A DNA stretch of 64,000 nt, from positions 96,001-160,000 of IMG/VR virus record IMGVR_UViG_3300035498_000371. One strand, 5' to 3'. The position numbers and the translations under genes are program-made. The notes under the pieces were generated by a model. It had not been told where the DNA came from. It worked only from the letters and a program-made list of their open reading frames with translations, and made no database searches. Of the stretch, positions 10,871-64,000 are shown one piece after another. This stretch comes from a virus. Its lineage: Duplodnaviria > Caudoviricetes. Within the stretch, counting starts at the first letter, position 1. Each line of letters opens with the position of its first letter.

Positions 10871-10926
10871 AAAGAATAGAGCATGGTTATTATAACCATG
10901 CTCTTACTATATTTATTTTTGCCCAA

Positions 10927-10939
10927 GACATCAAAGTAA
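10927..10939 (+). promoter_or_regulatory. Late promoter motif (also + 16811, 17412, 21971, 27464, 34133, 38716, 38931, 39619, 52246, 53811, 60965, 63591; - 9717, 54935, 55974, 60484)
   Basis: NAC(A/T)-N6-TAA upstream of structural operons; similar to AR9 late consensus AACA-N6-TA/G. Confidence 0.75.
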
Positions 10940-10966
10940 TTTATTAATAAAGGAGGTAGTTCGAAT

Positions 10967-13900
10967 ATGTCTACTAAGAAATATAAATGCCCATATTGCA
11001 ATGCTAGATTAGAGAGATCGGCATTAATTAAGCATGTAGATAAATTCCATCAGGAGTTAATTCCTGATGGGTTTACCTCAACTAGAATTGTTTATAATTC
11101 AGTTAATAAGACTGATGGTGGCAAATGTAGAGTATGTGGTAAACCTACAGAGTGGAGAGAAGATACCGGTAGATATAACGTTCTTTGTAAAGATCCAAAA
11201 TGCAAGCAGAAGATGAGGGATGATTATAAAAAGAATATGCTTCGTGTTAGAGGTACTTATAATATTCTTAATGATCCAGAGCAACAGGAAAAGATGCTTG
11301 CTAATAGATCCATCTCAGGAGAATATCAATTCTCAGATGGTGGTAAGGTAGGTTATACGGGAACTTACGAAAAGAAATGCTTAGAGTTCATGGATGTTGT
11401 TATGCAGATTAAATCAGACGATATTATGTCTCCAGGACCATCCATGGAATACACTTATAATGGCGCTAAGCATATTTATATTCCAGACTTCTATTATGTA
11501 CCATATAATTTAATTATCGAAGTTAAGGATGGTGGAGATAATCCTAATACTAAATTATCTCCAGGAATGAAGTCTTCAAGAGAACGTACTATAGAGAAAG
11601 AGCGTATGATTACTGATAAAGGAATCTATAATTATATCAGGTTAACCAATAACAACTTTCAGCAATTAATAGAAGTATTTATGGATATTAAATATGCTCT
11701 TATTGAAGGTGATCCTAGAAAGACTGTTAAGGTTAATGAATCATCAGATATTGATTTTTTTGAAGAATATGAATCTTTATCTGAGAATGGAATTATTACC
11801 ACTAAAGATTTGGAATATAATTTAGATCAATGGAAAATTGGTGGTAAGAATATTCTATTTATTACAGGCTTATCTGGTTCTGGTAAATCTACTAAGGCTG
11901 CTAAGTTGGCTAAAGAGAATAATGCTATTAATATAGAGATTGATCTCTTTGAGCATAACGATATTGTATTCGATAAGAATACAAATAATGATGATGGTAA
12001 TATTATTGTAAAAGAATACTTTGAAAAGAAATATGGGGGTGCTAGAAAGATGCCTCAGGGCGATCCTAAGTTGCCGCATATGCTTTATGATTTCATTAAA
12101 TATTGTATAAATTATGCTTCAAAGCATAAGGATCGTTTATTCATCATGGAAGGCATTCAGTTAGCAGATTTAGAGATGGCAGAAGAGCTTAAGAATTATC
12201 CTGTTATTATAGTAAATACCAGTATTATAAAATCAATGTATAGGGCAGCTAAGCGTGAAGGTATTAAGGATTATTTTAATTCTTTTAAATCATTCTCTGA
12301 TTTCTTAGGTTGGTTCAAATGGTATTTGCAGATGGATAAAAACAATAAGAAGTTTGCTAAAGATTTGAAAGAATCTACGTTTAATGAATCAACAACTCTT
12401 AAGAACTGTAAAAGATTAAATAATTATGGCGGTAATTTATATTTTATATCTCAAGAAGAATTAAACGGGAAAATATTATCTCCAAGAATACCGGATAATT
12501 ATTTTACAAAAAATAATTATGAAGATAACACTATCAAAAGAGTATGCTTTGCTCCATCTATAGATAAATGCTTAATGGGTTTATCTCAGAATCTTAAAGG
12601 AGAAGAACTTTATGTATATGAACCAGATGGGGAATATGAAATTTACAAACCAGATAAAAATCTTGTTCCCGATTCATCAATAACAGGAGAGTTATGGATA
12701 TTGAAACCTGTTAAATTGAAGAAGCTTGCCAAGATCAAAGTAATAGGTGATGCTGGAGAAGATGGAATACCTTTCTATTATGGCGATAATAAAGCTGAGT
12801 TATATAAATGGAATTATAAAATAATAGATGAATCTACGATTCCTGAAAAATGTAAGAAGTGCGGAGGAGATATCAAGGTTTATCTTAGAGGAGAACCAGT
12901 ATATCTTTGCTCCGATTGCGGGGAATATTATGGCACGGTTCCATTTAAAGAAGACGCTATATTAAAGTCTAAGAATGAACCGTTCTTTTTCTATCATCTA
13001 TTACCAAAAGGCGCTAGCATAACTAATGGTATTACAAGTTTGGAATATCAATATAATCATAATATGAATGATTTCCTGAAGAACTCCAATAAATACAGAA
13101 CCAGATTATGCGGCGGTTGGAATATTTACCCTGGCAGAAATCCAAACTCTTTATCTTCTGAAGAAATACATGAGGGTATAAATCAATTCAGGCATTCAAA
13201 TGGTGGTTGTAATAGAATTTATTTATTCAGATATGCCCCATATGAAAATCTTGGTTCTCAAATGAAGAAAATATTGGCGGGCAAAGATATTTATAGAGTT
13301 GATGTGAGTAAGCTTTTAAAAGATGGTATAATAATCGATATTGATTATGGTTATATAGATTCTAATACAGATAATGATAAATTAAGCGAGGATTGGTATA
13401 GAAATATATCCTATGATGATTATTTCAAAAACTACACAGAAGATAATCCTGATCGCCTGTTATTCAGTTATATGAACCATATAAGCGTTACTCCTAAGAA
13501 TGGGGTTATTCCTAAGAAATATTTAACGAAAATTGATAAGTCTAATTCATTATCTTTACAAGAAACTGATACTATATTAGAGCAATCAAACCCAGATAAT
13601 CTTGTTTTTATTGATATTAATAGAGACAAGAACACTACAGTTAAATATCTTAAGCAGAGGAATAGCAAGTATACAAATTATCTTGATAATTACATTGGAG
13701 AAATCATTGTAGATCAGGATAAAGATAAGCTTGCAGGCCAAGTATTTATTGGTAAGAAAGGAACGAAGGATGAAGGTTTCATTACAGGATTAGAAGTCTA
13801 TAAGCCTTATAAGAATAAAGGTTTAGGAAGTAAGTTGTTAGATGATGCTGTTAAGAAATATAATGGTATTGATCTTACAGTTTATAAGGATAATGATATA

Positions 13901-14257
13901 GCTATAAGAATGTATAAGAAATATGGATTCGTTATATTAGGTCCTGGAAATACCAAGAATAATGATTATTACATGAAGCTTAAGAGTAAGGTTTCTAAAT
14001 CAGACAAGAAATCAATCAAAGAATCTTCTGGAATGACTGCGGATCAGGTAGATAGATTTTATACCCTATTAAAGCAAAGATTAGACGAAGATGAGGAATT
14101 TGAGAAGTATGAATCTGCATTAACGCCATATAACAAAGATACAGATGGACCAAATGAGTTTCCTAAAGAAAAGTCTAACTTTAGTGCAGATGATCTTAGT
14201 AATACAGAGATCGATGATTTAAGTTTTGATGATTTAGACGACGATGAAGAGGACTAA
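10967..14257 (+). CDS. Multidomain protein: Zn finger + TnsA-like nuclease / P-loop kinase / ART-like / Zn ribbon / ART-like / GNAT / acidic tail
   Basis: YIPDFY..IIEVKD; GLSGSGKST; PRIP..RVCFAPS..ELW; CKKC..CSDC; FYHLL..GITSL; YKNKGLGSKLL..AIRMYKKYGF. Confidence 0.75.
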   Translation: MSTKKYKCPYCNARLERSALIKHVDKFHQELIPDGFTSTRIVYNSVNKTDGGKCRVCGKPTEWREDTGRYNVLCKDPKCKQKMRDDYKKNMLRVRGTYNILNDPEQQEKMLANRSISGEYQFSDGGKVGYTGTYEKKCLEFMDVVMQIKSDDIMSPGPSMEYTYNGAKHIYIPDFYYVPYNLIIEVKDGGDNPNTKLSPGMKSSRERTIEKERMITDKGIYNYIRLTNNNFQQLIEVFMDIKYALIEGDPRKTVKVNESSDIDFFEEYESLSENGIITTKDLEYNLDQWKIGGKNILFITGLSGSGKSTKAAKLAKENNAINIEIDLFEHNDIVFDKNTNNDDGNIIVKEYFEKKYGGARKMPQGDPKLPHMLYDFIKYCINYASKHKDRLFIMEGIQLADLEMAEELKNYPVIIVNTSIIKSMYRAAKREGIKDYFNSFKSFSDFLGWFKWYLQMDKNNKKFAKDLKESTFNESTTLKNCKRLNNYGGNLYFISQEELNGKILSPRIPDNYFTKNNYEDNTIKRVCFAPSIDKCLMGLSQNLKGEELYVYEPDGEYEIYKPDKNLVPDSSITGELWILKPVKLKKLAKIKVIGDAGEDGIPFYYGDNKAELYKWNYKIIDESTIPEKCKKCGGDIKVYLRGEPVYLCSDCGEYYGTVPFKEDAILKSKNEPFFFYHLLPKGASITNGITSLEYQYNHNMNDFLKNSNKYRTRLCGGWNIYPGRNPNSLSSEEIHEGINQFRHSNGGCNRIYLFRYAPYENLGSQMKKILAGKDIYRVDVSKLLKDGIIIDIDYGYIDSNTDNDKLSEDWYRNISYDDYFKNYTEDNPDRLLFSYMNHISVTPKNGVIPKKYLTKIDKSNSLSLQETDTILEQSNPDNLVFIDINRDKNTTVKYLKQRNSKYTNYLDNYIGEIIVDQDKDKLAGQVFIGKKGTKDEGFITGLEVYKPYKNKGLGSKLLDDAVKKYNGIDLTVYKDNDIAIRMYKKYGFVILGPGNTKNNDYYMKLKSKVSKSDKKSIKESSGMTADQVDRFYTLLKQRLDEDEEFEKYESALTPYNKDTDGPNEFPKEKSNFSADDLSNTEIDDLSFDDLDDDEED

Positions 14258-27498: not shown

Positions 27499-30288
27499 AT
27501 GGCTTTAGAAGATTTTAAGAACAATAACTCTCCATCAGATAAGAGAAAGTTGTTGGTTAGAATAGCAACTAATGTACTAAATATATATGGAATAGAGTAT
27601 AATATTGCCAGTGGAGATAGAGAAGACTTCATAGATGGTAAAGAGAATAAAAACTTTAATTCCATTTGTCTTTGCTTTAGTCTTGGTAAGAACGTTGGTA
27701 AGGCTTGTAAAGTGGTTAATAGAGAAATTAAGCAGTATGGTGGAAAGTTTAAGCATGATGAGCACGGTATTGGAATTCTCTATCTTAAAGATGATATCGG
27801 GGCAAATGAATTAGATCTACCAGATGTACAAGATGATATTCATTATATATTGGATAATACTCCTGATGATAGAATCTTTCTTACAACTGACTGGCATATC
27901 TTTGGTCATTACTACGGTAAAGGTAGAAATCCTGTCAATATACAGGAAATTGTTTCATGGTGTAAGAAGAATATTAAAGATGAAGATGTTCTTATAAACT
28001 GTGGAGATTTGACTCATAGATATGCTAATAAAGAGCATCAAGAAGAAGCAGCAAAGATTTATAGAAGTCTTCCTGGGATAAAAGTTCTTATTCTTGGTAA
28101 TCATGATATTGCTACCGGGGAAGATTTCTACACTAATTGCGGATTTGATTTTATATTCAAAAGATTGGTTCATAACGGCATAGTTTATAGCCATAGACCA
28201 GAGAATATCGAAGCCGATCCAGAATTATGGTTTAATATTCATGGGCATAAACACGATGTTCAGACTTATAACGTTACTAGTGGAGAAAATAGTGTAAACG
28301 TTTACCCAGCATTCTTCAATAATAAACCAACAACGCTGGATTATGTATTAAATCATAGAGATAAATTGACTAAAGATAACGTACAGGATTTCTGGTCTAA
28401 TTATACAGAGAGTGCATTAAATGAAACGAAGAGATCTGAACTTCCAGATTCTTCATTTGGTATTCCTGAAGATCGAAAGTTTCCATTAGATACAGAGCAG
28501 CATGTAAAATCTGCAATAAAATTATTTGGTCATGCTGAAGAATCCAAGAAGAAACAACTTGCACAAAGAATATCTACAGCCGCAAAAAGATATAATGTAA
28601 AGATCTCTGATACATGCCAGATTAATAAGTACTTAACAGAATCTGTTGAGCATATTATTCCTAAAGATATTGATACTCTTATCTTTGATATGGGTAAAGT
28701 ATTGGTTGGAGATACGACTAAAGATATGCTTACAGCATCTGATATGATTCCTAATGATGAAGTTGAAGGAATTTATAAATCTGTCGGTAAAATTCTCTTC
28801 ACAGATGAATCAGAGAATATGACTAAAGATGAAGCCATGCAGGAGTTCTACAATAAAGCTCCAGAGAAGTATAAGAAATATACTTCTACAATATTCCAGT
28901 GTATTGCTAATGGATTGAAGATTTATTCTTATACTTACGAGCTTCTTGATAAGCTTAAAGGAATGGGTTATAGAATCTATTACTTATCAAACTGGGAAAG
29001 ATGGACTTATGAGATAGAAGAAGATATATTTAAACCATTGCTTGATAAGTTCGATGGAGGATTATTCTCATTTTCTGAAGGCTGTAAAAAACCAGATGCA
29101 GAATTCTATATAAGATTGCTTGATAAGTATTCTTTACAAGCAGAGAGATGCGCTTTCTTTGATGATAAAGCAGAAAATCTTGCTGGAGCAGAATCTGTTG
29201 GTATAAAAGCCGTTCCATTTAATTATGAGAATACTTATAAGATGCTGGTAAGCGATATATCTGTAACTACAGAAGCTGCAGATGTGGCTTACGATAAGAA
29301 CACCATTCTTATCAATAAAGATAATGAATTAACTACGGTGGATATTAAGAATATTCCTCATTGGCACGTATGTGAATCAAGATACCCTGGAGAGATGAAT
29401 GAAGATTGTTATTATAAATCTCTTATTGAAGCAATAGAGAATTGCGGAATAATGGATAATATAGAAGATTCTAAACAAGCTTATGTGTTCATATGCAATG
29501 GTTTAAGACAGGATTGCGATGATTGTTTTCATCCAGTATGTGTTGGTATCATTAACGTAGATTCTAATAAACAATATGAATGGGTTATTCAGTATCCTGT
29601 AACGGTTGAGGGTGGTGTATACAAGAACGTTGTTTCTGCATCTGAATGGGCTATGGCTTCGATGAATCCTATAAAGCCAATTGCTAAACCATTCATATTA
29701 AAAATATCTCCTCAAGATGAGACTATAAGAACCAAGCAGTATTTATTCTCCCCAGATGTAATTGCTGATAAATATTTAGCAATATCTGAAGATGGTAAAT
29801 TATCTGTATTAAATCATAAAGACGTTGAGAATTTATATATTGAAGCCGAGTATAGATTCGTCGGTGATTCTCGTAGAATTAATAAGATTCGTGAGGCTTT
29901 AAAGAGTGGTAAGATTGTAGATAATACATTCTTCTATACTGCTCTTACTGGAAAACCATTACTTACAGAGGATCAGATTGATTTTGATTCTAATTTTGTT
30001 AAGATCGACTTCAGCAGAATGAGGAACAATATCTTATCCAATCTTGCTACAAATGAGTCTAAGTTTAATACTCTAATTGACAGTAATACTAATGGAGTAC
30101 TAATTACTGAAGGTTACAAATATGGATCTCTTAATGATAAATATGGGTTAAGGATTATGTATTCATTGGAAGGTTATTATGTAGAATCTTCTGTTCTTGG
30201 ATATAAGAGCCCATATTTTAATTCTGTTGATGAGATAACAATAGAAGTTGTAGAAACAATGCTAAATAAGAAACTGGAGGTGATGTAA
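27499..30288 (+). CDS. Multidomain protein: metallophosphoesterase / DUF6582-like / HAD phosphatase / unknown domains
   Basis: TDWH, GD, GNHD, SH, HGHKH; LPDSSFGIPEDRKFPL..HVKSAI; IFDMGKVL..KKPD..FFDD; late motif 27464. Confidence 0.8.
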   Translation: MALEDFKNNNSPSDKRKLLVRIATNVLNIYGIEYNIASGDREDFIDGKENKNFNSICLCFSLGKNVGKACKVVNREIKQYGGKFKHDEHGIGILYLKDDIGANELDLPDVQDDIHYILDNTPDDRIFLTTDWHIFGHYYGKGRNPVNIQEIVSWCKKNIKDEDVLINCGDLTHRYANKEHQEEAAKIYRSLPGIKVLILGNHDIATGEDFYTNCGFDFIFKRLVHNGIVYSHRPENIEADPELWFNIHGHKHDVQTYNVTSGENSVNVYPAFFNNKPTTLDYVLNHRDKLTKDNVQDFWSNYTESALNETKRSELPDSSFGIPEDRKFPLDTEQHVKSAIKLFGHAEESKKKQLAQRISTAAKRYNVKISDTCQINKYLTESVEHIIPKDIDTLIFDMGKVLVGDTTKDMLTASDMIPNDEVEGIYKSVGKILFTDESENMTKDEAMQEFYNKAPEKYKKYTSTIFQCIANGLKIYSYTYELLDKLKGMGYRIYYLSNWERWTYEIEEDIFKPLLDKFDGGLFSFSEGCKKPDAEFYIRLLDKYSLQAERCAFFDDKAENLAGAESVGIKAVPFNYENTYKMLVSDISVTTEAADVAYDKNTILINKDNELTTVDIKNIPHWHVCESRYPGEMNEDCYYKSLIEAIENCGIMDNIEDSKQAYVFICNGLRQDCDDCFHPVCVGIINVDSNKQYEWVIQYPVTVEGGVYKNVVSASEWAMASMNPIKPIAKPFILKISPQDETIRTKQYLFSPDVIADKYLAISEDGKLSVLNHKDVENLYIEAEYRFVGDSRRINKIREALKSGKIVDNTFFYTALTGKPLLTEDQIDFDSNFVKIDFSRMRNNILSNLATNESKFNTLIDSNTNGVLITEGYKYGSLNDKYGLRIMYSLEGYYVESSVLGYKSPYFNSVDEITIEVVETMLNKKLEVM

Positions 30289-31775
30289 TGGATAAGAATA
30301 TTCAAGCAATGATAGAATCATTTAAAGAGTCTAATCCATCATCTTCTAAAGATATTAAATTTGTATTTGAAGGATATATTTGCCCTTACTTTACAATGGA
30401 TGAAGTTGCTCAACTTGAGGGCTATTATTCTGATAATGTAAACAAAGAGTATAGAGCTCTATATGAGCATATCGCTTGTCATGATACAAACTTTGGTAAA
30501 TCATGGGCTTCTAAAGTTGTAGAATTACAGAATCAGCTTAAAGTTGTTACAGAGCCAGAGCATATTGATCAGATTAAGCAGGAGCTTATAGATCTTGGTT
30601 GGAATCCTGAAATTGAGTATACTGCGGAGAATCAGATTAAAGCCAAGAAGAGATATGAAAATATATTAAACGAGAGGTACAATAGGTTTAATATTGTGGA
30701 TTGTACTAATATAAATATTTCTGATGTATTGGAAGAATCAAATGAATATGGAATTCTATATCCAATACATATTGTCTTGGTTAAAGGAGATCATCTTATA
30801 TCCAACGTTATTACTAAAGTAACAAATGGGGATTTCTCTCATTCTGGTTTGGCGTTGGATAATGATCTTAATAAGATTTACAGCTTTAACTTTGATAACA
30901 AATTCAATACTGGCGGTGGATTCTCTTTAGAGTCTATAAAAGAATATCCTAAAAATAATAGGCTTGCTGTTTACACAGTATTCGTTACTAAGCAGGCTTA
31001 CGACAAGGTATCAGAAAATCTTCAAAACTTCATGAATAATATAAAGAAGACTGGATATTCTATAGTAAATCTTGTTACGTTTCCATTTAAGAATATCAAG
31101 ATCAATATGAGTGACAATATGATTTGCTCTCAGTTTGTTGATTATATTCTTAATATAGCAAACGTTAATATAACAAAGGATGATGCTTCTAAGGTTTCTC
31201 CTAACGGATTATACTTTGCTATAAAATCAAATCCTAAAGCATATAAAGTCTTTGACGGTGAAGTAAAAGACTTTGATGCTAAGAAAATAAATAAGACTGT
31301 TAAGAAGATTTCTAAAACAGCTTCCCCAGCTAACGAAATACAGCAGTTGGAGCAAGCAATATTTGAAGCCAGAAAGATTCCAGTCGAAATTAATGCAGAT
31401 GGTGACGTATTACTCACAAATCCGTTTCCTGACTACTCTGCTGAATATTTCGCTTCTCATAAATTACTGCTTAATTATGAGAAGACTGGAAATATTGAAG
31501 GGATGAAATACGAGCTTGCTAGGCTCTATTATATGAATTATATTATAGAGAAGAAATTATATCATAATAAGAATCTTAAGAATAAGCAGGAGAACATCAA
31601 GACCAGAGCTAGAATTCTTAATGATTTCAATAAATATCTTAAATACGTTCTTTCTAAGGATAAGAATTTTAATTTCTCTGAGTATTATGAGGGTTCACCT
31701 TTCTATGCCCATACAATAGAAATTAAATCATCAACCATAGGCAAGATCAAAGATATTATAAGTTATATATTATAA
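30288..31775 (+). CDS. Protein with inserted permuted papain-like (YiiX/NlpC-P60-like) domain
   Basis: ITKVTNGDFSHSGL..GYS..MICSQFV..VSP. Confidence 0.7.
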   Translation: MDKNIQAMIESFKESNPSSSKDIKFVFEGYICPYFTMDEVAQLEGYYSDNVNKEYRALYEHIACHDTNFGKSWASKVVELQNQLKVVTEPEHIDQIKQELIDLGWNPEIEYTAENQIKAKKRYENILNERYNRFNIVDCTNINISDVLEESNEYGILYPIHIVLVKGDHLISNVITKVTNGDFSHSGLALDNDLNKIYSFNFDNKFNTGGGFSLESIKEYPKNNRLAVYTVFVTKQAYDKVSENLQNFMNNIKKTGYSIVNLVTFPFKNIKINMSDNMICSQFVDYILNIANVNITKDDASKVSPNGLYFAIKSNPKAYKVFDGEVKDFDAKKINKTVKKISKTASPANEIQQLEQAIFEARKIPVEINADGDVLLTNPFPDYSAEYFASHKLLLNYEKTGNIEGMKYELARLYYMNYIIEKKLYHNKNLKNKQENIKTRARILNDFNKYLKYVLSKDKNFNFSEYYEGSPFYAHTIEIKSSTIGKIKDIISYIL

Positions 31776-39657: not shown

Positions 39658-42600
39658 ATGAAAGGTGTCACAAACTATCTTAAGAATGTAACTAAATCTG
39701 TTGCTTTCTCAGCGATGGACGTAGCTAAATCAGATATGGCACCAGATGTCATTGATTTCGCCGAAACTAATAAAGAGCTATTCGTATCAACTTATGCTGC
39801 TCTTAAGAATCCTAAGACTGCTGTAAAGAAATCAGTACAGGCTATTCAAAGTTCTAAAGTTTATCAGGCTGTAGATTATGGAACCAAAAACTTATTCCAA
39901 GATTTAAGGACTGGTAATTTCTATAACAAAGAAAGAATGGCTAGAGACGAGGCTCGTCTTGCAGGTCTTGACGTTGATGACTGGAACGATCTATCAGAAT
40001 TTGGTGTTGATGATGATTGGGAAAGTAAATCCTCAGGAAGCAGTAAATCTGCTTCCGAAGTTACTGCTGGAGATATGGCAATCGTATCTTCTATAGAGGG
40101 TTCTAATGCTGCATTAGCAAATGCTACAGTAAATGCTGTTGTTGGTAGTGCTGATAGTATTAATAAGAATGCTCGTATTAATACAGCTATGCTGTATACT
40201 CAAAATGAAAAACTATTTAATGGTCTTAATAATAGTATTGGTGCTCTTAATAGTACCATGAATGCTATATTTAAGGTTCAATCTCAGGCGCTGCAGAATA
40301 TGGATAAAAACATGTCTACATATTTCACAGAGTCTGTTAAATTAGATACTGAAAGAAATGCTATAATGAAAGAGATGCTGGAAATGCAGAGGAATATGTA
40401 TAAATCAGCATCTGACAAGGAGAGGGAAGCTGCTAATAAACGAAGCGGTTCTAAGAAAAAGTTCCGTTGGGGAGATATTTCTAGCAGCGGTATGCCTGAT
40501 TTGGATAATTATATCTCTTCTGTAAAGAAGAATATTAATGATCAGATTTCAGGTATGGGAATTCCTGGATTCTCTGAAGACTCTAATATGCTAGCATCAA
40601 TGATGGTATCACCAATGAAGTATGTTACCGATTACGTTGTTAGTGGATTAATCCCTGCAACTATCAAGGAAGCTACTAAAGAACTTAACGATTCTATTAC
40701 TGGCATCTTTGGTAATATTATTGGTATGCTCGGTAATGCCAGAGCTAATAACGATGGTGGTATCATGGGCATGATAGCCAAAATATTTGGTGTAAATACT
40801 AGTGTAAACAGAACCATCGATGCTACAAAGTATGAGAAAGGCCCAGTTCCATTTGATGGTCTAACTCGTAAAGCAATTATTGATGTTATCCCTGCGCATC
40901 TTAGAAGAATTGAGGCTGCTCTTACAGGAATGCCAGAGCAGATGTTTGACTATAACTCTGGTAAATGGATTAAAGCCAGAGATGTAAAGAAGCAGTATGA
41001 TGATATTCGTAAGAATGCCATAAGGAGTGGTACATCTGATTTACGTGCTCAGATGAATCCTGCATTTAGAAAAGTTGCAGCAAGTAATAAAGCCGATAGA
41101 GAAGATCTTAATGAAGCATTCAACGAATTAATGGAGTTTATCTATGATAATAATGGTAGATTTAATCCTAATATATCTGCTGCTAAGAATAAAATAGATC
41201 CTGTAAAGTATAGACATCTTGCAAATGATAAGATTTATCCTATAATATGCACAGTATTTAAGAATTTTGCTTCTACTACAAATGAGCGTGGAGAGCAACG
41301 TACAGCGTTCTCTAAAATGCTCGGTATTTCAAATAAAGTTCTTTCTGCTAAAGACGCTGAAGAGAAGCAATATAGAGATATCGAAAATTCTGCTACTAAT
41401 GTAATTAAGCAGCTCATTTCTGAAGGCGGATTCGCTAGTTCAGATAAACATGGAGCTTGGAAGGTTAAGGATAAATCTCATCCAGACAAAGAAACTTTTG
41501 AAGCCTATAATAGTCTTACAAGAGTTAAAGATAGATACGATAATACTGTATTTGATTATTTACAGAATGTAAATAAAGAACTTACATGGATGCGCTTAAA
41601 CTGGGCTCATTCTATTAATATTAATGGGGGAGGAGGATATTCTTCACGTTCTGGTAGAGGTAGAAGAAGTGGTAGAACTGCTTCTCCTATAGTTAATAAT
41701 TCCCCTATGGTTAGCTTTGATAAGATAGATATTCGTAATGCTAATTATAAAGCACCTACAGCTAATAGCAATTATGGAAATGCTGCAGATACAAGAGCAA
41801 CAAATGAAGCTATAAGCAAGATCGAAAAAGGAACTGCTGTTGATTTTAGAGATTTCTCTGTTGATGAACAGCAAGCTTTATTACATTTAGCAGCTCTTAT
41901 TAGAGATAATAATACGAGTGAATATAATCAAGCTACAAGAAATGCTATAGATTCTAATGCCATTTCTAAATTCATCGATCAGCACTTCATTAAAACTGAT
42001 ACTACTACTTTAAGAGATATCGAAAGACGTAGTAGAAAAGCTGATGAAGAAGGTAAGAATACTGATGAGATTGATTACGGTGATGCTAAAGAGAAGAATT
42101 TCGTTACCAAGATCAAAGAAGTAATTGGTCAGTATGGTTCTCTTGGAGGCGCTATCGCTGGTGCTGGAACTGAAGCTTTTAGAAACGTTTTATATACTGC
42201 TGATAAAGCTATATATGAAATGATGTATAAAGCAGAGCTTAAAGTAGACGGCGAAGATGGAGCAAAGAAATATGAAGGTTTCATGGATATGATAGCTGGT
42301 AAAGCTAAAGAAACCTTCGATGGCATAAAGAAATATGCCGAAGATAATATCTTAAAACCATTTAAAGAAAAACTTGGCATTGGTGAAGACTTCAAAGACC
42401 GTTTCAAGAATTCATTCAAGAACATGGCTAAGGCTGGCGGGAAAATGTTTCTTGATGCCAATAAAGAAGTTTATAGACCTCTTTACAATGCCACTATTGG
42501 AGACTGGAAACAAAAGAGCCAAAGCAAAGTAGCAATGGCTACAACCAAGAAGAGGTTGCAAAATAAATACTATAAAACTGGTAATAAAAATTATAAAGAC

Positions 42601-45600
42601 TCAGATGATGAGTATGAACTTGAACAAAGAGCAGCTGTAGTTGGAGCAACAGCAAATGATCTTGCTAGGTTTAGAGATCAAGCTACGACTGAAGATGGTC
42701 AGTATTATCCTCAGATGTATATTGCACTGCTTAACGATTTCTGTAGAAAACACGCTAAGGATGAATATGCAAAAAGAGCAAATACAGACGTATTCGCCAC
42801 TAAAGAAAAACGAGATGCTCGTAATAGAGCAGCTGCTGGCGGTAGAACAAGCATTGATCAAGATGGTAACGTTACTACTAATCGTAAAATAGATAGAGCT
42901 GCAGAGGCTAAATCATTAATTAAATGGGGTAGAGAAAACCGTATTTATGAATATGGAGATGAAGATGGATCAAGTATTATTGCTCGTCTTCAGGCTAATG
43001 GAGTTTCTAATGAAGAAATTGATAAAATGCGTGACGCAGCTTATGTGAAAGTAAATGCTGTAGATGCTAATGGTAAACCTATAGTAAAACGTGAATATAA
43101 TCATGATTTATTTATAGCATCCTTGATCAAGAAATATGAAAGATATGAGCATAGCCTTCATGCTAAAGGAACCATGGGCAAACCATTCATGGGTAAATCT
43201 ATGCTTTCCAAGGGTGAATTGCTATTCAATTCTAAAGGAATGAGTTTAGTAAACAAGACCGATGCTTATAATGTAAATGAACCCACTCATATCTTAAATA
43301 CAGAAGACTCTCATGATTTATTATCAATATTGGGAGCTAAGAATTTAGGACCTAAAACATCTATTCAACAAGCTCTTGGTAAAGAGAAACTTGCTAAGAA
43401 GAAGATTTTCGGTAAAGATAGCGTTGCTAATAATGCCGAAGGTAATATGAAGATAGATGGTAAGGATATATCTCCTAACGATTTAATAGAAACTGGAAAG
43501 AAATACCTGCCTGAAACCCTTGCTGGTAGTAGTATTGGAGGAATTATAGGATTGCTCTTTGGTGCTCCTATATTGGGTGCTGGTATTGGTAGTGCTGCTA
43601 GTATGATTAGCAGTAGTAATACTCTTAAAGATAAATTATTCGGTCAAGTAGGAAAAGACGGAAATAGAGCTGGTGGTATCATATCTAAAGCCACTCAGGA
43701 TACTGTAAAGAAATATTTGCCTGATATGGCTAAATATGGTTTAGCTGGTATTATTCCTGGACTTCTTACTCCACTTGGACCTATCGGTGGTTTGCTTGTT
43801 GGTGGAACCATTGGTATGCTTAAAAATAATGAAAGATTCACTAATAAATACTTTGGAGAAAATGGTAAACTTACCATCGGATCTAAAGAGAAAGAAATAA
43901 TTCAGAAAATGTTCCCATCTGCAGCTAAAGGTGCTGGAATCGGAGCTATTGCTGGATTATTTGTACCTTCACCATTTGGTATTCTTGGCAATGCCGTTGT
44001 TGGTAGTGTAGTTGGAATGATGACTACTACTGATGAGTGGAAAGAAATGATCCTTGGAACTGATATTGGTGGAGTTCGTGAAGGCGGTCTTGTAGGTGTA
44101 CTTAAAGACGCACTTAAACCTATAACTGATGCTTTGACTAATCTTAAAGATAAGGTTGCTCAGGCTGTAGATAATAATATAGTAGATCCTCTAAAAAGAT
44201 TCATGACTCCAGCTATTCATGCTTTACCTAAATTATTAGGCAAAATACCTGCTAAGATTAGTGATAAGCTTGAAGACCTTTATGGAACTTCTGCAGGTCA
44301 AAAAATAAAAACAGCATTGAAACCTGTATCATTCGTTGGCTCTAAAGTTATTGGCGGTGCTGGTAAAGTATTTAATGCTGCTACGACTCCAATGAGGCTT
44401 ATAGGAAAAGCTGGAGATAAAATCAGAGAGAACGCTATTTTAAATAATGAAGCTGAATATATGACAGCTCAAGAACGTATACAGTTCATGAGTGATAAAG
44501 GTAAAGATTATTTAAATAGCGACTTCGATAAAATGCTTGCAGATATTGGCAAGGGTAATGGTGCTATGTCTGTTGATCAGGCTAAAAGCTTAATGAATAA
44601 CCTTAATGTATTAAGGGATAGCGAAGCTGGAATTTCGTCTGCTCAAAATAGAGCATTTAAAGATATTCGTAAAAATCTTGAGAATTATAAAATGGGTAAT
44701 GGTAAATCATTATCTAATACTACTTTAAAGACAGTTAATGATGCGTTAAAGTATAATAATACTGATAAAGCGATTAAAGCTCTAGAAAACTCTGGAATGT
44801 CTAAAGAAGAGTTTAATGCTCTTATGGATGGCGACGCTGGCTTAAGAGGCAAGCTTACAAATTATAGTGATCTCAAAGAGCGTAAGAGAAGACTATTAGA
44901 TACTGATAAGAATGAAGCTAGTAATAAAGTGCAAGAGCTTCTTAAAGAATTTGGCATGGATAACATTGACGTTAGAAATAAACGCGATGTTGAGAAAATG
45001 GCTAAATTATTAAATACTGAAATTGTGAACCGTGAAGCGAATCCTGAATCTATTGAGGGTAAAGAATTATTGCTTAGCGAAGATCGAAATAAGAAGCTTC
45101 AAGAATTACTTGATTCCTTTGAAGAAATGAAAGAAATCATGAAGGGTAATGTTGAGGGTGCTGGTGATAGTACTGCTCAGAACTTCAAGGCTAACGTTAC
45201 TGATAAAGTAAATAACGCTGTTGACGCTTCTAATGAGAAATTCGATAAAGTTTCAGAAAAGGAAACAGCAAAATTTGAAGGTGAGGCATCAGATGAGCTT
45301 AAAGATGAAATGAGTCGTCATTCTGCAAATCCTGTAAAGAATATTGTTAATTCGGCCAAGCATACATCTCAAGCTAAAACTCTAAATGCTGAACAAGCAT
45401 CTGCAGGTTTAGAAAATCTTAAGAGGACTAAACAGTTCATAAAAGCAGGTTTCCCGCTTGAGAATGAAGGAGAAATGATAGGTTATGTAAAGAATCTTAC
45501 TCCTGTTAAATTTACCTCACTTATGAGGATTAGCAAATCTGGAAAGGTGTCTAGATATTTAAAGAGCCCGCAGTGCAATATAAAACTCACTAAGGAAGAT

Positions 45601-48600
45601 GTAGATACAATTACTTCTTTGAATAATAACGAGTTTGCTAAACTTGAATCAAGATGCGCTGGTTATCTCGAAGCTGGTAGATTTGAGTTCAAATCTATTA
45701 AAGAAATTCTTGAATCTGAATATGCTAATGATGGTTATACGAGTTTCGGCAACATGGTTAAAGGCAAGGTAGGTAAAGCCGCAAGCGGTGTTGCTGGGTT
45801 TGCTGGAAAAACTGTAAGCGCTTTAAATCCATTTACTTTAAAGAGTAGGATTAAGAAGAGCTACAGTGATTACATGTCTGATGGCCTGAATGCCGAGCAT
45901 GTTGAAAGTGAAACTGGAGCTGAACCTGTAGCTCAAAATGGTTTAGGAACAATGCTTCTTAAGGGTGTTGGTTCTGTAGCTAAAGGAATTGGAAGCATTG
46001 CAACTAAAGGTATTAAATCTTTATTTGGTGGCGGCAGTGATAGTGAAGGTAGTTCTAAGGGAGCTGCTGGAAAAATGGCTGGAATTCTTTCCATGCTTGG
46101 AGCTAAAGGTCCTGATGCTGGTGGAGGAAATAACTCTATCGGCGATACTAATGAAACTGATAAAGAAGGAGACGGTAGAGATATAACGCAGACTTCTGAA
46201 GGTCCTGCATTTATTAAGCGTGGTACTGATGGAAGTATCGATTATGATACTACTGACTCTAAGACTAAGCAGGTAGTAGAAAAACTTACTGCTAAAGAAA
46301 AGCTAAGCCAGAAATATATGGAAGCCCAATCTAAAGTTGGCGAGAGCTTAAATAAATTATTTGGTGAAGCTGAAGAGGAGAAGAAGACTACTAAGCTTTC
46401 TATGTTATCACTCTTATTTGGTGGTGCTTTGTTAGCTAAGTCTGGTATTCTTGGTAAAATCTTTAATAACGTTATTAAACCTCTATGGGAAGATCATCTT
46501 AAACCATGGATTACTGATACTGCTATCCCATGGATCATCGATACTGGTATTCCTATGATAACCAGTGCCATATCATCTTTAGGTAGTGTAATTGTTGATG
46601 GTATTAAAACCTTCTTCACAACTACTGGAGATGGAGGTTTCTGGGGCATTCTTAGTACAATCTTAAATGTCGGTAATACTGATGGCGATGAGAAAGATTT
46701 GGTAGTGGATACATCTACTAAAGACTCCAGTGAAATGACTGGCATGAAGGATGAGAGTGGTAATACTCTTACATGGGGTGATATCCAGAATCATAATTAC
46801 CAGAAACTCTACAGTAATGATGGAGAGGAAATATACGTAGATGAGAATGGTAATGTAGTTAATGAAGCAGAGAATAATTACGCTGCTAAAGTTGCTGGTA
46901 AGGTTGGTAATGCCGCAGCTCATGCATTTGCTCAAGGCGGAGTTCCACTCGTTAGCACTGCATCTAAAGGCTTATCATTCCTTAGTAAGCATGGCGGTAT
47001 TGCTGGTAAGATTATTGGTACCACTGGTAAGGCCATTACATCCACAGTAGAAGCTGCAGGTAAAGCTGGTTCGGCTGCAACTACTCTTGTAGCAGAGCGT
47101 GCAGCAACTCGTCAAGCTAATAAAGCATTATTATCTGCAGGAGGAACAGTTGCTGAAGAATTACCTACAGTGGGTAGCAAAGTAGTTAGCGCTGTTAAGA
47201 CTGCTGCTACTAATAGTAAAGTAGGTCAATGGATTCAGACTGGTAAAGATCTTAATAAAGCTAAAAGTTTAGGTGGCATGTTTGTAGACAGCGCTTCGAC
47301 AAGTCAAAAGGTTGCAGCTAAAGTTGCTACAGCTACAGAAACTGTTAGTAGTAAGGTAAGCACTATTATTAGTAAATTAGCAGGTGTAATTGATGATTTA
47401 TTCAGTAATAGTACAGTGCTTAAGAAGTTGAAATCTGTTGCAGAAGTGTTGCATATAGATGATGTAACTTCATGGATCAGCAAATTTAAAGATAAGGTTA
47501 CTAGCGTATTCGATGATGCCATTACTAAAGGTGCTGAGAAGGCTGGTTCTGAAACTGTAAAGAAAGCTGCATCAAAATTAAATCTTATTATGACAATTGC
47601 ATTTATAGTTAAAGACTTCCTTACAGGATGTGATCAAGCTGAATCTATACTCGGTGTAACTAACAGTACTATTGTAGAAGAGTTAGTTTCTGGTATCGTA
47701 AATGCATTGTGTAACTTGCTTATTATCCCTGCAATATTCCCTGGAGTTAGCAATATAGCTCAGCTCTTACTTGAATTCTTTGGAGACGATCTTGAAGAGC
47801 GTCAAAAAGAAGCAGATGAAGAGTTAGAAGAATACAGAGAGAAGAATGGTAGCGATATAAGTAAAGAGGATTATCTTAAACAACAATACTCTGTTACTGG
47901 TAAAGTTGGTGCATGGTTTAAGAAAGGCGTAAGCAATATTAAACAGGGTGCTAAGGATCTAGTAAGTGGAGCTAAAGATAAAGTATCTGGAGCATTAAGC
48001 ACTGTTAAAGAAAAAGCAAGCAATGTAAAAGATGCTGTTGTCGATAAAGTTAAGAGCGCTGCCTCTGCAGTTACCAGTGTAGCTAAGAGTGCTGGTGGGT
48101 TTGTAAAGGAGAAAGCTACTAAGACTATAGACTTTGCTAAGGAATTAGGTAGTAAAGTTACATCTGGAGACATCCAGGGGTTAATATCTTATCAAGCTGC
48201 TGGAGAAGATGAAGAAGGCGGAGTAATGAATACTGTCCAGAATATGGCAGGAAATGTAGCTAAGGTTCCATTACTTATTCCTACAGTAATATCCGCCGGA
48301 ATCCATAAAGTAGCAGACTTTGTTACCAATATAGTAGGTAAGGCTAAAGATACTGGTAGCAACTTATTAGATCTTGGTAAACAACTTAGCACTTATATCT
48401 CATCTGGAGATGTAGTAGGACTGATGGGCTTCAATAGTGGAGTTGAAGATACTGAAGATTACACTGGAAGTTTATCTAAATCTACTGTAGGTGGTGCTAA
48501 GCTCTTAGCCTTTATACCAACTATATTATCTATGGTTGGAGGCAAGGTAGGAGAAATAATTGGTAATATTATAGATAAAGCCAAGACAGCTGGTGGTGCT

Positions 48601-51600
48601 ATTGGCGATACAGTAATGACCATGAAAGATTACGTTATCAGTGGTGACGTAGTTGGATTAATGACTCATAAAGTCGATGAAACCGATGATTTTGCTGGAA
48701 AAGTATCAGCAGTAACCGTAGGAATATCTAAAGGTATTATGTTTGTACCAACAATGCTCTCTTCTGGTGTTCATAAAATTGCTGATGCTGTAGAAACTAT
48801 ATTCGGTGGTATCAAGACAGCTGGTGGTGCTATTGCAACAACTGTATCTTCTATGCAAACTTTTGTTACCAATGGCGATATTACAGGTCTTATTAATTAT
48901 GCACCAACAGTAACCGATGATTTTGCAGGTAAAGTATCATCAATAACATCTGTTGTTGCTAAGGGAGTTATGTTTATTCCTACATCTGTATCTGCAGGTG
49001 TTCATAAGATTGCTGATGTTATAACAACAGTAGTTGATGGTATTAAAACTGCTGGAACATCTACTGTAGATACATTACTACAAATGAAAGATTATGTAGT
49101 TGCAGGCGACCCTGATGGATTATCAGCATTCCAACCTGCTACAACTGAAGGTTTAGCTGGAGGTGTAGCTAAAGTAGTATCAGGTGTTGGTAAAGTAATA
49201 CTTACTCCTGCAACGTATATTTCACTAGGCGTTCATAAAGTTGCTAGCGGAATAGAATCTATTATAGAAACTGGACAAACGATTGCCGAAGGTGTTGCTA
49301 ACGTTGGAAGCGATCTTATTGAATTCGTCAAAGAGGGTGATACTGATGGATTATCAGCATACACAATTGGCGAAGGAGATGATTTCTTATCTAAAGCAGG
49401 AGGAGTTGTAACGTCTGTTGCTAAAGTAATTGTTACTCCTGCAACATATATATCTAAAGGCGTACATGCAATATCTGATACATTCCAAGATATTGTAGAT
49501 GAAATCATGAGCGTTAAAGATGATACCGATACTGTAATTCAGCAAGCTAAGGATGGAGAAGTATCTCTATTCTCTAGTGATTATTGGGGATCAAGCGATA
49601 GTAGTAGTTCTGGATTTGTTGGTGCTATAGGTAAGGTATATGGATTTATTACCAAGGTTATAAATGCACCATTCGTTCTTGTATCTAATATCATTAATAA
49701 GGTTGCTGATGCATTCTCTAATATAAAGGATTGGATCGAAGAGAAGTTCTCTGGAGTTAAAGAGTTCTTCGAAGATCCATTATCATTTGTATATAAGAAA
49801 ATTACAGGTAAAGGAACTGTAGAAGCAGATGGTTCATTTGAGAAAGTAGAAACAGATGATACTGAATCTGCTAGCGGTTCTTATGGTAGAGGAATCTATG
49901 GTCGTGGTTACAGTAAACAAATAGATCCTAGTATAAAGAACTATCGCTTTAATAAGAAAGGTGATAGCGAAAAACAAACCATTGGAGATTCTGCATGTGG
50001 TCCAGCTGCAGCTGTAAATGTAATCGAATCATTACATGGTCGCGGAGCTTATGGACGTGGCGGATCTGCTGTATTAAATGCTGCAGGATATGCGCTTCGT
50101 AATGGTTATAAAGAAACTAATGGAGGAACCAAGCCAGGATTCTTTAGCGATTATTTCAATAAGAATGGTTATGGTTCTCAAACAACTTCAAGTCGTTCTC
50201 AGTTATTGAATAATATCAATAACGGGATGCCTACTGTGCTTATGGGTAGAGATGCTAGAGGCGTTTCTTCTTCTACACCATTCGGAAAGACTCCTCATTA
50301 CGTTACCGTTACAGGAACCGATGGTAAGGTAAATGCTATAGTTCAAGACCCTGAGTCTAAAGTAGATAATCAATTATATCCTACAAAATCATTATTAAGC
50401 AAGAGCTCATTAGGTGTATCTGCTTACGGTAAAGGATCAAGATATGGTAGAGGAACCATGTATGGTAGAGCAACTTCTACAAATATTGACAGTATGGTTA
50501 CTGGCAATAATGGATTAGATCTTATTAAATCATGCGAAGGATGGAGATCTACAGCGTATAAACTTGCTGGAGAAACATATTACACCATAGGATATGGTCA
50601 TCATGGAGCAGATGTAAGCGCAGGACAGACAATAACTGAGGCTCAAGGCTTAGCACTTCTGAAAAGTGATCTTGGAACATATGAGAAATCAGTTAGAGAT
50701 AACTGTAAGAGCATAGGATTTACTCCAAATCAAAATCAGTTTGATGCGCTGGTATCTTATACCTATAATAGAGGTACCGGAGGAGCAAAACAGTTATATG
50801 AAAACTGTAAAACCGCCGATCAAATTTCTGATGGCCTTGTTACGTATTGGGGATCTGCTACTAGATATAAAGATTCTCTTATCAATAGAAGGAAGAAAGA
50901 ACAGACGCTGTTCAATTCAACAAGCGAAAACTCAGTTGATTATTCTTCAGTTTCTTCTTCATCTAGTAGTATATTATCTTCAGATAGTAGCAGTTCATCA
51001 TCTTCTTCTGATGGATCAGTTACCAATTCGATAGTTAGCATGTTTGGTAACCTGTTGTCTAACTCTAAGATCGGTAAAGCATTATCGATATTCTCTGGAA
51101 GTTCTAGTAGCAGTAGTAGTTCTTCATCATCTTCTTCTAGCAGTAGCGGAGATTCAACAACTGCATTTACTGGAGGAGAGCCATACACTGGAAATGCTGG
51201 CGGTCAGATTAAGAAACTTCTTACAGCTGCTGCTGGCGAGATTGGTTACCATGAGACTGGTGATAATATCACTAAATATGGAGCTTGGTATCCAATGAAT
51301 GGTCAGCCTTGGTGCGCTATGTTCGTTTCATGGGCAGCAAATCAGGCTGGTATACCAGAATCAATTATTCCTAAATATTCATATTGCCCTACAGGTGCTG
51401 ATCAATTGAAACAGCTTGGAGGTCAAGAAGTATCTGGTGCTAATGCTGGACCTGGAGATATCTTATTCCATTATAATGGATCTAGATATTCGCACACTGG
51501 TATCGTTGAAGACGTATCAGATGGTAAAGTTCATACCATTGAGGGTAACAGTAGCGATCAGGTTATTAGAAGATCTTATGCTACTAGTGCATCTTCTGAG

Positions 51601-63685: not shown

Positions 63686-64000
63686 ATGATTTTTAGTAAT
63701 AACAGTACTGCTCTGGGTGCTGGAAGCATTCCTATGGCAGAAGGTTACGATTGTTCTTTCGGACCTGCACTTGCCCTCGTTGAAGGAGCAAGAAATGATT
63801 ATGCAATGTTCCGCGCAATGCTTAATGTAGAGTCCCGTGAGTTGCAGATTAGAAATGAATCTGCTGGTTATGTTACTGAGGGTGAGATTGCTGCTCTTCA
63901 GGAAGCTACAGGATCTGGCATCTGGACTAAGATCAAAGAGCTTTTCAGCAAACTGGTTGCCAAGATTAAGGCAATCTTCCATAACTTTATGGCTAAGCTT
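63686..64000 (+). CDS. Internal head protein-like, truncated by window edge
   Basis: Manual translation MIFSNN..LVEG..RNES..VTEG..LQEA-TGSGIWTKIKELFSKLVAKIK: propeptide plus amphipathic helix as in phiKZ-type inner head proteins; late motif 63591. Confidence 0.7.
   Translation, partial: MIFSNNSTALGAGSIPMAEGYDCSFGPALALVEGARNDYAMFRAMLNVESRELQIRNESAGYVTEGEIAALQEATGSGIWTKIKELFSKLVAKIKAIFHNFMAKL

Follow-up and report, generated by a model that had tools for sequence, protein, structure and literature searches.

A phage polyprotein of unrelated enzyme modules with head-protease-like motifs at its joints

Here we describe a gene in a 64,000-nucleotide stretch of a jumbo-phage genome (the window; positions 96,001 to 160,000 of IMG/VR record IMGVR_UViG_3300035498_000371) whose product strings together a nuclease, a P-loop NTPase, a module with the ADP-ribosyltransferase (ART) fold, a zinc ribbon, a conserved module of no family and a GNAT acetyltransferase. 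The gene is a single open reading frame (ORF) of 1096 codons at 10967-14257 (window coordinates; features below lie on the plus strand unless stated otherwise). All six joints of the chain bear the motif hydrophobic-x-E, a sequence motif at which cutting is predicted, and in relatives of the protein the same motif marks the places where one module gives way to the next. We read the chain as a probable cargo polyprotein that would be taken apart by the head-maturation protease of the phage. A first-pass annotation of the window had noticed the punctuated joints; that observation is confirmed, and at the level of sequence it is far stronger in the family than in the single protein. The interpretation that came with it is partly supported: its sequence-level predictions all held, subject to the corrections given below, and its mechanistic core of prohead loading, cleavage and injection is something that we infer.

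Junction motifs in the 1096-residue chain

From the N-terminus onwards, the joints carry V-N-E↓S (11732-11743, residues 256-259; the arrow marks the predicted cut), a tandem of L-K-E↓S and F-N-E↓S (12365-12391, residues 467-475, the two sites starting at 12365 and 12380), I-D-E↓S (12824-12835, residues 620-623), F-K-E↓D (12944-12955, residues 660-663), L-Q-E↓T (13556-13567, residues 864-867) and I-K-E↓S (14015-14026, residues 1017-1020). The first-pass annotation had listed these sites, and every one stands where it was placed, 12391 being the last base of F-N-E↓S. Inter-module gaps, estimated from Pfam, PHROG, AlphaFold 2 (AF2) and homology boundaries, make up about one tenth of the chain. 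In its strict form, [ILVMF]-x-E-S, the motif occurs five times in the chain, each time between modules; a loose form gives 14 matches, 7 of which lie within modules.

The motif among relatives

An exhaustive profile search returned 908 relatives at E<1e-30, of 287-2042 residues, about 150 of which entered the motif analyses. The relatives retain the nuclease and vary the cassettes and their order, with GNAT (in 32 of the 52 relatives scanned), HAD, NUDIX, SNF2 helicase, transglutaminase, Gln deamidase and Metallophos domains among the cassettes. Constant termini around a variable interior had been expected: the inner cassettes do vary and the nuclease end is kept, but the C-terminus is not constant and in some relatives the nuclease is internal rather than N-terminal.

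Junction 1 is the most readily compared across the family. Hydrophobic-x-E is found there in 142 of the 145 homologues that align to the nuclease, with the consensus [IV]-[RKH]-[IV]-[NH]-E-[S/A/G] (P2 is Asn in 109 of 141 and P1' is Ser in 72 of 141), and homology stops just past this point, where unrelated modules come next. The stand-alone nucleases of AR9 and phiR1-37 end about 12 residues before the position of this motif. Downstream of junction 1, an unbiased k-mer count over the 142 homologues ranks the tripeptide NES third in over-representation (135 occurrences against 34 expected), and the gapped word I.ES occurs 161 times against 38.5 expected; I.ES, L.ES and V.ES stand among the top gapped words, alongside Walker A. 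Throughout the relatives, forward motifs number 578 and reversed ones 188, and the frequency with which motif sites coincide with homology breakpoints is 2-4 times that of reversed or random sites. Six module types were scored for the motif within 15-35 residues past their internal ends: it is present at 68-81% of these ends (68% of 63 for the P-loop module, 81% of 53 for GNAT), compared with 10-22% of windows drawn at random in the same set of proteins. The predicted concentration of the motif at linkers is thereby borne out, and on these sequence counts a chance origin across relatives is excluded.

The other joints behave alike. Module 3, the ART-fold module, is followed in relatives by the motif within about 10 residues of its W-x-W-x-W-I-E-K end (as N-E-S when another module comes next). 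The counterparts of junction 4 read FKE↓S, MNE↓S, MTE↓S and YDE↓S, and those after module 5 read IDE↓S, IIE↓S, INE↓S and VTE↓S. Cassettes also enter and leave at these sites, as the first-pass annotation had anticipated for indel breakpoints: relative L019 differs from relative L018 in a P-loop cassette that fits precisely between two E↓ sites of the latter, and in L028, L029 and L030 cassettes are swapped between repeated V-K-V-N-E↓S-T-L-L-E junctions. In these comparisons the motif tracks the joint and not the module, and modules 2-6 (P-loop, ART fold, zinc ribbon, module 5 and GNAT) shuffle independently behind the nuclease.

Might the junction be a scar of that shuffling, that is, a DNA-level recombination signal or a gene-fusion remnant that was kept as cassettes moved with their flanks? 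Cassettes clearly shuffle, and L028 has the same 12-residue junction twice. However, the coding sequences of the two L028 copies disagree at most of their synonymous positions, Ser at P1' draws on both codon families (TCN 32, AGY 9) and the junction Glu on both of its codons (GAA 31, GAG 10), which together argue that selection acts on the peptide and not on a DNA recombination signal. Moreover, the distance from module end to motif varies from 0 to about 30 residues, in sequence that cannot be aligned. Codon usage at the junctions rules out the DNA-level signal, and we regard the scar explanation as a whole as very improbable.

A more serious contender is that the chain is never cut: a multi-enzyme protein, packaged or not, in which the motif is a conserved linker or a domain-capping element. 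The virion RNA polymerase of phage N4, for example, is packaged unprocessed. At junction 1 the residues P6 to P2 also occur in the stand-alone nuclease proteins L023 and L024, which end ...YRINK-stop, so the motif is partly domain structure there, and the I-D-E of junction 3 lies within a predicted strand. Polyvalent proteins that travel intact are documented as well (PMC5512222). Against an uncut chain stands the loss of the motif where a module ends the protein. Only 2 of 17 such ends carry it, and module 3 lacks it in 5 of 5 cases when C-terminal, the chain stopping a few residues past W-I-E-K. A passive linker would also not be expected to show the residue choices described below, and the same motif closes the N-terminal leaders of single-module proteins and flanks the catalytic domain of the head protease itself. 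On balance, we consider an uncut chain unlikely, although it is the strongest of the alternatives.

Residue preferences at the junctions

The junction residue profile looks like that of a protease site. At P3, Ile, Val and Leu are enriched 4.2-, 3.6- and 3.5-fold; at P2, Asn 11.8-fold and Thr 8-fold; at P1, Glu 3.8-fold, whereas Asp reaches just 1.1-fold; and at P1', Ser 3.8-fold, Ala 2.4-fold and Gly 2.2-fold. Such discrimination between Glu and Asp would be expected of a Glu-specific protease and not of a flexible acidic linker. T4 gp21 obeys L/I-X-E, with cleavage after the Glu, and does not process the IPIII leader once P1 is Asp (PMC9026906); SPN3US gp245 favours Ser at P1' (PMC10052503). 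The first-pass annotation had invoked phiKZ-type processing next to that of T4, but the phiKZ-type rule (S/A-X-E) is not the one seen, the profile being T4-like with an aliphatic P3.

A head protease with the motif at its own processing positions

A protease of the expected kind is encoded by the same phage. Pfam S77 proteases score above the cut-off in its genome (G000) and in five of five related genomes, all of which also encode a homologue of the capsid protein. The G000 enzyme, which bears out the earlier call of a gp21-type protease, matches PF03420 at 44.5 bits (cut-off 27) as well as phrog_207/3014, and the catalytic His and Ser motifs, GHP and FSLRA, are invariant in the six genomes. 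Near the N-terminus, Glu-12 is invariant across all six, within I-I-L-E↓G, I-L-N-E↓S, V-I-I-E↓T or I-I-C-E↓S, and parallels the LIE-9 site of T4 gp21. Directly past the catalytic domain, four of the six proteases have I-V-S-E↓A, I-V-T-E↓S or V-I-N-E↓S, and the other two (G005 and G003) have loose counterparts alone (G-V-T-E↓N and D-D-A-E↓K). Self-cleavage at the equivalent position is known for T4 gp21, phiKZ gp175 and SPN3US gp245 (PMC9026906). The protease ORF, at C1:73479-74567 on the minus strand, is listed as 362 residues; relatives start at a Met that gives 276 residues (C1:73479-74309; M-S-N-K-V-I-G-N-I-I-L-E), and the longer frame, which overlaps the neighbouring gene, is probably not translated. 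The divergent neighbour (C1:74415-77009, plus strand) encodes a protein of 864 residues. Hydrophobic-x-E-S occurs in it five times, four of these within residues 160-330, and we regard it as a candidate scaffold or core protein that would be cut into pieces.

The motif also closes short leaders. Of 12 relatives with something other than the nuclease at their N-terminus, 8 begin with a leader of 8-17 residues that ends in it, and stand-alone module 3 proteins have N-terminal leaders of about 10-17 residues that end likewise; one of the latter sits in a related phage, adjoining homologues of G000 genes of unassigned family. In G000 itself, four paralogues of 345-485 residues and a neighbouring 435-residue protein with a similar leader (C1:159686-165995; window 63686-64000 onward) lie beside virion structural genes and ahead of the gene for an RNA polymerase beta-type subunit. 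The paralogues begin M-I/V-F-x-N..., with hydrophobic-x-E at residues 15-19, and one of them weakly matches the 'internal head protein' family phrog_6807 (E 5e-4); the family looks like an analogue of the T4 internal proteins (IP) or of the phiKZ inner body. The leaders of relatives and paralogues follow the same pattern as the capsid-targeting sequences (CTS) of T4. A further gene, at 30288-31775, encodes a 495-residue protein with a ClpP/crotonase-like region (phrog_1128); its start, M-D-K-N-I-Q-A-M-I-E↓S-F-K-E↓S, resembles a leader with two tandem sites, and we regard the protein as a candidate for packaging.

Directly upstream of that gene, at 27499-30288, lies what in sequence is a second polyprotein of the same kind with the same punctuation. 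By PHROG and Pfam boundaries its 929 residues comprise a calcineurin-like phosphoesterase, a DUF6582 domain, a HAD hydrolase and a C-terminal part of 350 residues that is unassigned. Y-T-E↓S and L-N-E↓T (residues 302-310) fall exactly between phosphoesterase and DUF6582, and L-T-E↓S (residues 379-382) exactly between DUF6582 and HAD. DUF6582 is also found as a cassette in relatives of the 1096-residue protein.

The motif by itself defines just the rule of a Glu-specific endopeptidase, and another Glu-specific protease, of phage or host origin, might instead act on the sites in the cytoplasm, either ahead of packaging or once the chain has been injected. DdrB of phage P1 is processed prior to packaging (PMC5512222), and the absence of an N-terminal targeting leader from the 1096-residue protein would suit such a route. 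Yet no peptidase family was found in the chain by Pfam or PHROGs, the one Glu-specific protease that all six genomes were found to encode is the S77 enzyme, which bears the motif at its own processing positions, and the late promoter and the structural-protein homologue described below point to the virion. Cleavage elsewhere therefore seems to us improbable, more so than an uncut chain.

Several observations weigh against cleavage by the head protease, the explanation that we favour. The chain has no N-terminal capsid-targeting leader and begins directly at its zinc finger, so that packaging, if it occurs, would have to depend on the nuclease module. For the known S77 proteases of phiKZ-like phages, the preferred P3 residue is Ser, Ala or Gly, not an aliphatic one (PMC10052503, PMC9026906). 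An M-x-E near residue 97 of the capsid protein is conserved in the six genomes, but its P1' is Ala, Met, Leu or Gln and thus not uniformly small; the protease rule could consequently not be calibrated on the capsid, where the cut position is not fixable from sequence. N-terminal motif sites are not enriched in the G000 proteome (24 proteins against 21 expected). The 1096-residue chain taken by itself has 5 strict sites where 1.2-1.6 are expected (shuffle fraction 0.004), a modest excess for a motif that was picked post hoc. Finally, residues P3-P1 of I-D-E↓S at junction 3 form the end of the last strand of module 3 in the AF2 model, which may limit access for a protease. A complex prediction for the catalytic domain of the protease with the junction 1 peptide scored 0.01 and counts neither way. 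The proteome of G000 as a whole has no motif excess (266 forward and 248 reversed matches): the signal is confined to cargo-type proteins and is of no use genome-wide.

Modules of the chain

Module 1 (10967-11701, residues 1-245), the constant module of the family, combines a C2H2-type zinc finger with a PD-(D/E)xK nuclease. It matches the 'endonuclease' profile phrog_15137 (E 9.8e-43, residues 5-241 on profile positions 3-234 of 236), and its homologues are the zinc-finger endonucleases of AR9, PBS1, Staphylococcus jumbo phages and phiR1-37, at 30-38% identity (38% to AR9 g233, 30% to phiR1-37 g237). In its PD...E-V-K motif, D174, K187 and D188 are nearly invariant. The record of phiR1-37 g237 bears the note 'phage structural protein', and from this annotation we tentatively suggest that the nuclease module may serve as the loading handle of the chain.

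Module 2 (11774-12361, residues 270-465) is a P-loop NTPase with the Walker A sequence GLSGSGKST, present in about 98 of 150 relatives at varying positions in the chain. The P-loop region (residues 293-410) matches AAA_22, AAA_18, AAA_33 and APS_kinase of Pfam, all below threshold, and PHROG matches to ATPase and polynucleotide kinase are weak; the first-pass call of a P-loop kinase therefore stands for the P-loop, 'kinase' being just plausible. That annotation had also called the nuclease, zinc ribbon and GNAT modules, all of which hold, and a first ART-like module, which holds at the level of fold.

Module 3 (12398-12832, residues 478-622) is that module. Its AF2 model, built on a 45-sequence alignment, has a predicted local distance difference test score (pLDDT) of 96.7. 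Foldseek places Arr (2hw2, rifampin ADP-ribosyltransferase) first, with probability 0.98 and a template-modelling (TM) score of 0.41, followed by the ART domains of pertussis, cholera, typhoid and CARDS toxins; in VIA-align, all 50 of the 50 rows listed belong to the ART superfamily, with Z 5.0-6.7 and a root-mean-square deviation of 3-4 Å over 100-111 aligned residues. These scores are moderate and the matches consistent, and we regard the modelled ART fold as a sound assignment. As regards a possible catalytic triad (H-Y-E or R-S-E), Y15, S18, R48 and E98 (module numbering) are conserved, and at the position of the first-strand His the 1096-residue chain has Phe and some relatives have His. 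A profile search of PDB sequences with module 3 found nothing. In BFVD, the fold has clear relatives (TM 0.63-0.72, E 1e-6 to 1e-7) in vB_KvM-Eowyn, Stratton, Ea35-70 and Noxifer, all of them jumbo phages; the matching proteins are uncharacterised and have about 230 residues. The cassette therefore extends beyond the AR9-like clade.

Module 4 (12836-12943, residues 624-659) is recognised by the Cys pattern CxxC...CxxC of a zinc ribbon, which recurs as a separate module of about 40 residues in 16 relatives. In tblastn, the ribbon (residues 621-671) is 47-56% identical to sequences of Lak megaphages of Prevotella, and it is thus common to very distant huge phages.

Module 5 (12956-13546, residues 664-860) is conserved and belongs to no family; its signature is FYFYH...KYRxRLC...NHIS, and an alignment of 19 sequences (A3) has 24 invariant columns. 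It has no Pfam match, and a profile search of PDB sequences gave just spurious matches to pilus chaperones. The sole lead to an ART identity, which the first-pass annotation had proposed for it, is a language-model similarity of 0.89-0.90 to DarT/PARP and Arr clusters. A comparison of modules 3 and 5 with hhalign revealed no profile similarity (probability 1%), and a joint MAFFT alignment of modules 3-5 was dropped, fragments of module 3 having been laid onto module 5.

Module 6 (13604-13996, residues 880-1010) is a GNAT acetyltransferase, with Pfam scores above cut-off for Acetyltransf_1 (PF00583, 39.9 bits against 20.7, residues 909-988), Acetyltransf_7 (31.0 against 27) and Acetyltransf_10 (27.2 against 23.6). 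The tail (14027-14257, residues 1021-1096, including the stop codon) is a helix followed by an acidic, D/E-rich end. With a net charge of -13 in its last 25 residues it is the most acidic of the family set. The acidic tail noted at first is thus real in this chain and not a constant of the family: a tail charge of -6 or below occurs in just 14 of 164 relatives, against 2.3% of random windows, and these charges rule out a constant acidic C-terminus as a family feature. A single-sequence AF2 run on the whole chain gave a pLDDT of 31 and was unusable for linker mapping.

Expression and genome context

A hairpin with a T-run that terminates the upstream gene (10878-10920; a 12-bp inverted repeat at 10878-10904, then the T-rich run) precedes the polyprotein gene, which therefore opens its own transcription unit. 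The late-promoter-like motif GACATCAAAGTA follows at 10927-10938, 40 nucleotides ahead of the ATG and beginning at the first base of the locus as delimited by the first-pass annotation, and the Shine-Dalgarno sequence AAAGGAGG lies at 10949-10956, AAGGAGG being the dominant upstream 8-mer class of G000. The promoter-like copy departs from AACA-N6-TW, the AR9 late-promoter consensus, which was checked here by position conservation, in having G in place of the first A. AACA-N6-TA occurs in 50 of 236 upstream regions of G000 (53 sites against about 22 expected, roughly a twofold excess) and precedes the capsid gene and virion or structural genes by 20-60 nucleotides; this excess is consistent with an AR9-type late promoter that would be read by the non-virion RNA polymerase. 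At orthologous loci of the polyprotein gene, [AG]ACAT-N5-TA stands at a fixed -36 to -46, and AR9 g233 carries the late-type promoter motif AACAATATTTTA. An 8-mer search of G000 upstream regions for promoters recovered the ribosome-binding site alone. The late motif proposed at first is accordingly found as an AR9-type element throughout the gene family and in common with the capsid gene, and from these upstream sequences late expression of the polyprotein gene is a reasonable, if indirect, conclusion.

The source genome has 238,843 bp and 34% G+C. Since G000 encodes pieces of multisubunit RNA polymerases, GroEL, a 616-residue major capsid protein, a tape-measure/lysin protein and the T4 gp21-type head protease, the phage is an AR9/PBS1-like jumbo phage with two RNA polymerases; its strong AAGGAGG ribosome-binding sites make a Gram-positive host likely. 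The tape-measure/lysin protein is encoded at 39658-52203 by an ORF of 4181 residues; it has tape-measure-like regions and, towards its C-terminus, two lysin domains, and is unusually long even among jumbo phages. A few genes upstream of the polyprotein gene, at 4837-6048, lies a full-length RtcB-type RNA ligase (phrog_1075, E 4e-135), which points to tRNA or RNA repair functions in the region. Against cultured phages, megablast with the polyprotein gene gave no DNA-level match, and the matches of tblastn were confined to the nuclease module, plus the zinc ribbon in Lak phages. A search of sequencing runs yielded word shares of just 5-7% in two gut metatranscriptomes, and no habitat or expression claim rests on these.

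Discussion

The 1096-residue chain is a polyvalent protein as these are defined. Such proteins contain 2-15 unrelated conflict-type domains per chain (ART, GNAT, nucleases, zinc ribbons), are mosaic and, by prediction, travel in the phage head and enter the host along with the DNA (PMC5512222; jumbo-phage survey PMC7824862). The likeness lies in the joining of unrelated enzyme domains and in the mosaic architectures of the homologues. Processing of polyvalent proteins has been proposed to proceed via embedded peptidase domains, MPTase and others, which are common in them but not universal (PMC5512222, PMC7824862); in contrast, the chain described here has no detectable peptidase domain, and its joints instead bear a motif that would fit a separate head protease.

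The closest parallel for the cut-site rule is phage T4. There, IPI-III and Alt have leaders of about 10 residues that end in the site, Alt being a packaged ADP-ribosyltransferase that is processed and injected, and gp21 has its own site near the N-terminus and obeys a strict Glu rule (PMC9026906). The junction rule of the polyprotein resembles L/I-X-E in its strict Glu and aliphatic P3. However, each T4 cargo protein has a gene of its own and a single leader, which is cleaved off, whereas here many enzymes share a chain that has an internal site at every joint and no leader. In phiKZ, 201phi2-1 and SPN3US, which are likewise jumbo phages with a virion RNA polymerase, an S77-type protease (gp175/gp245) processes many head proteins on the C-terminal side of Glu, with Ser preferred at P1' and sometimes at tandem sites within one propeptide (PMC5694885, PMC10052503). 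Their measured rule, S/A/G-X-E, differs and serves to remove N-terminal propeptides, and release of several enzymes from one chain is not reported for these phages in the same studies. AR9 g233, PBS1 gene 124 and phiR1-37 g237 are homologous to module 1 but are single-module proteins of about 236 residues. A full-text literature search found no description of phage polyproteins punctuated by head-protease sites. By analogy, the cut-site logic of T4 CTS/gp21 and of phiKZ-type maturation appears to be used here between enzymes rather than after a leader.

Based on these observations, we propose the following model. The gene product would be a late-expressed polyvalent cargo polyprotein that enters the prohead, perhaps via its nuclease module. 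The S77 head-maturation protease, of the T4 gp21 type, would then cut after each junction Glu, and the resulting six or seven separate proteins would be ejected with the DNA and act early on host nucleic acids and proteins. New cassettes could be joined simply through another copy of the cut site. We give the full mechanism of prohead loading, cleavage by the head protease and injection a probability of roughly 60%, judging from sequence. More tentatively, and at a little short of even odds, the polyprotein may represent a general plug-and-play cargo system in jumbo phages of several clades, in which enzymes are spliced into a carrier chain via the head protease's own cut site. In that case the junction motif would read out the protease specificity of each clade, the cassette set would list its injected effectors, and the virion nuclease would here be the loading handle that replaces a T4-type leader.

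Should cleavage of the joints take place within the capsid, a single gene would supply a customisable set of enzymes at DNA entry, among them a nuclease, an NTPase, an ART-fold protein and an acetyltransferase, and this would account for a cheap diversification of first-strike counter-defence in jumbo phages. The several hundred relatives make the hypothesis directly testable. Were it true, the head-protease specificity of uncultured phages would be readable from sequence alone and the packaged effectors of metagenomic phages could be listed. For the loading of foreign proteins into phage heads, it would offer a design rule taken from nature that builds on the T4 CTS approach.

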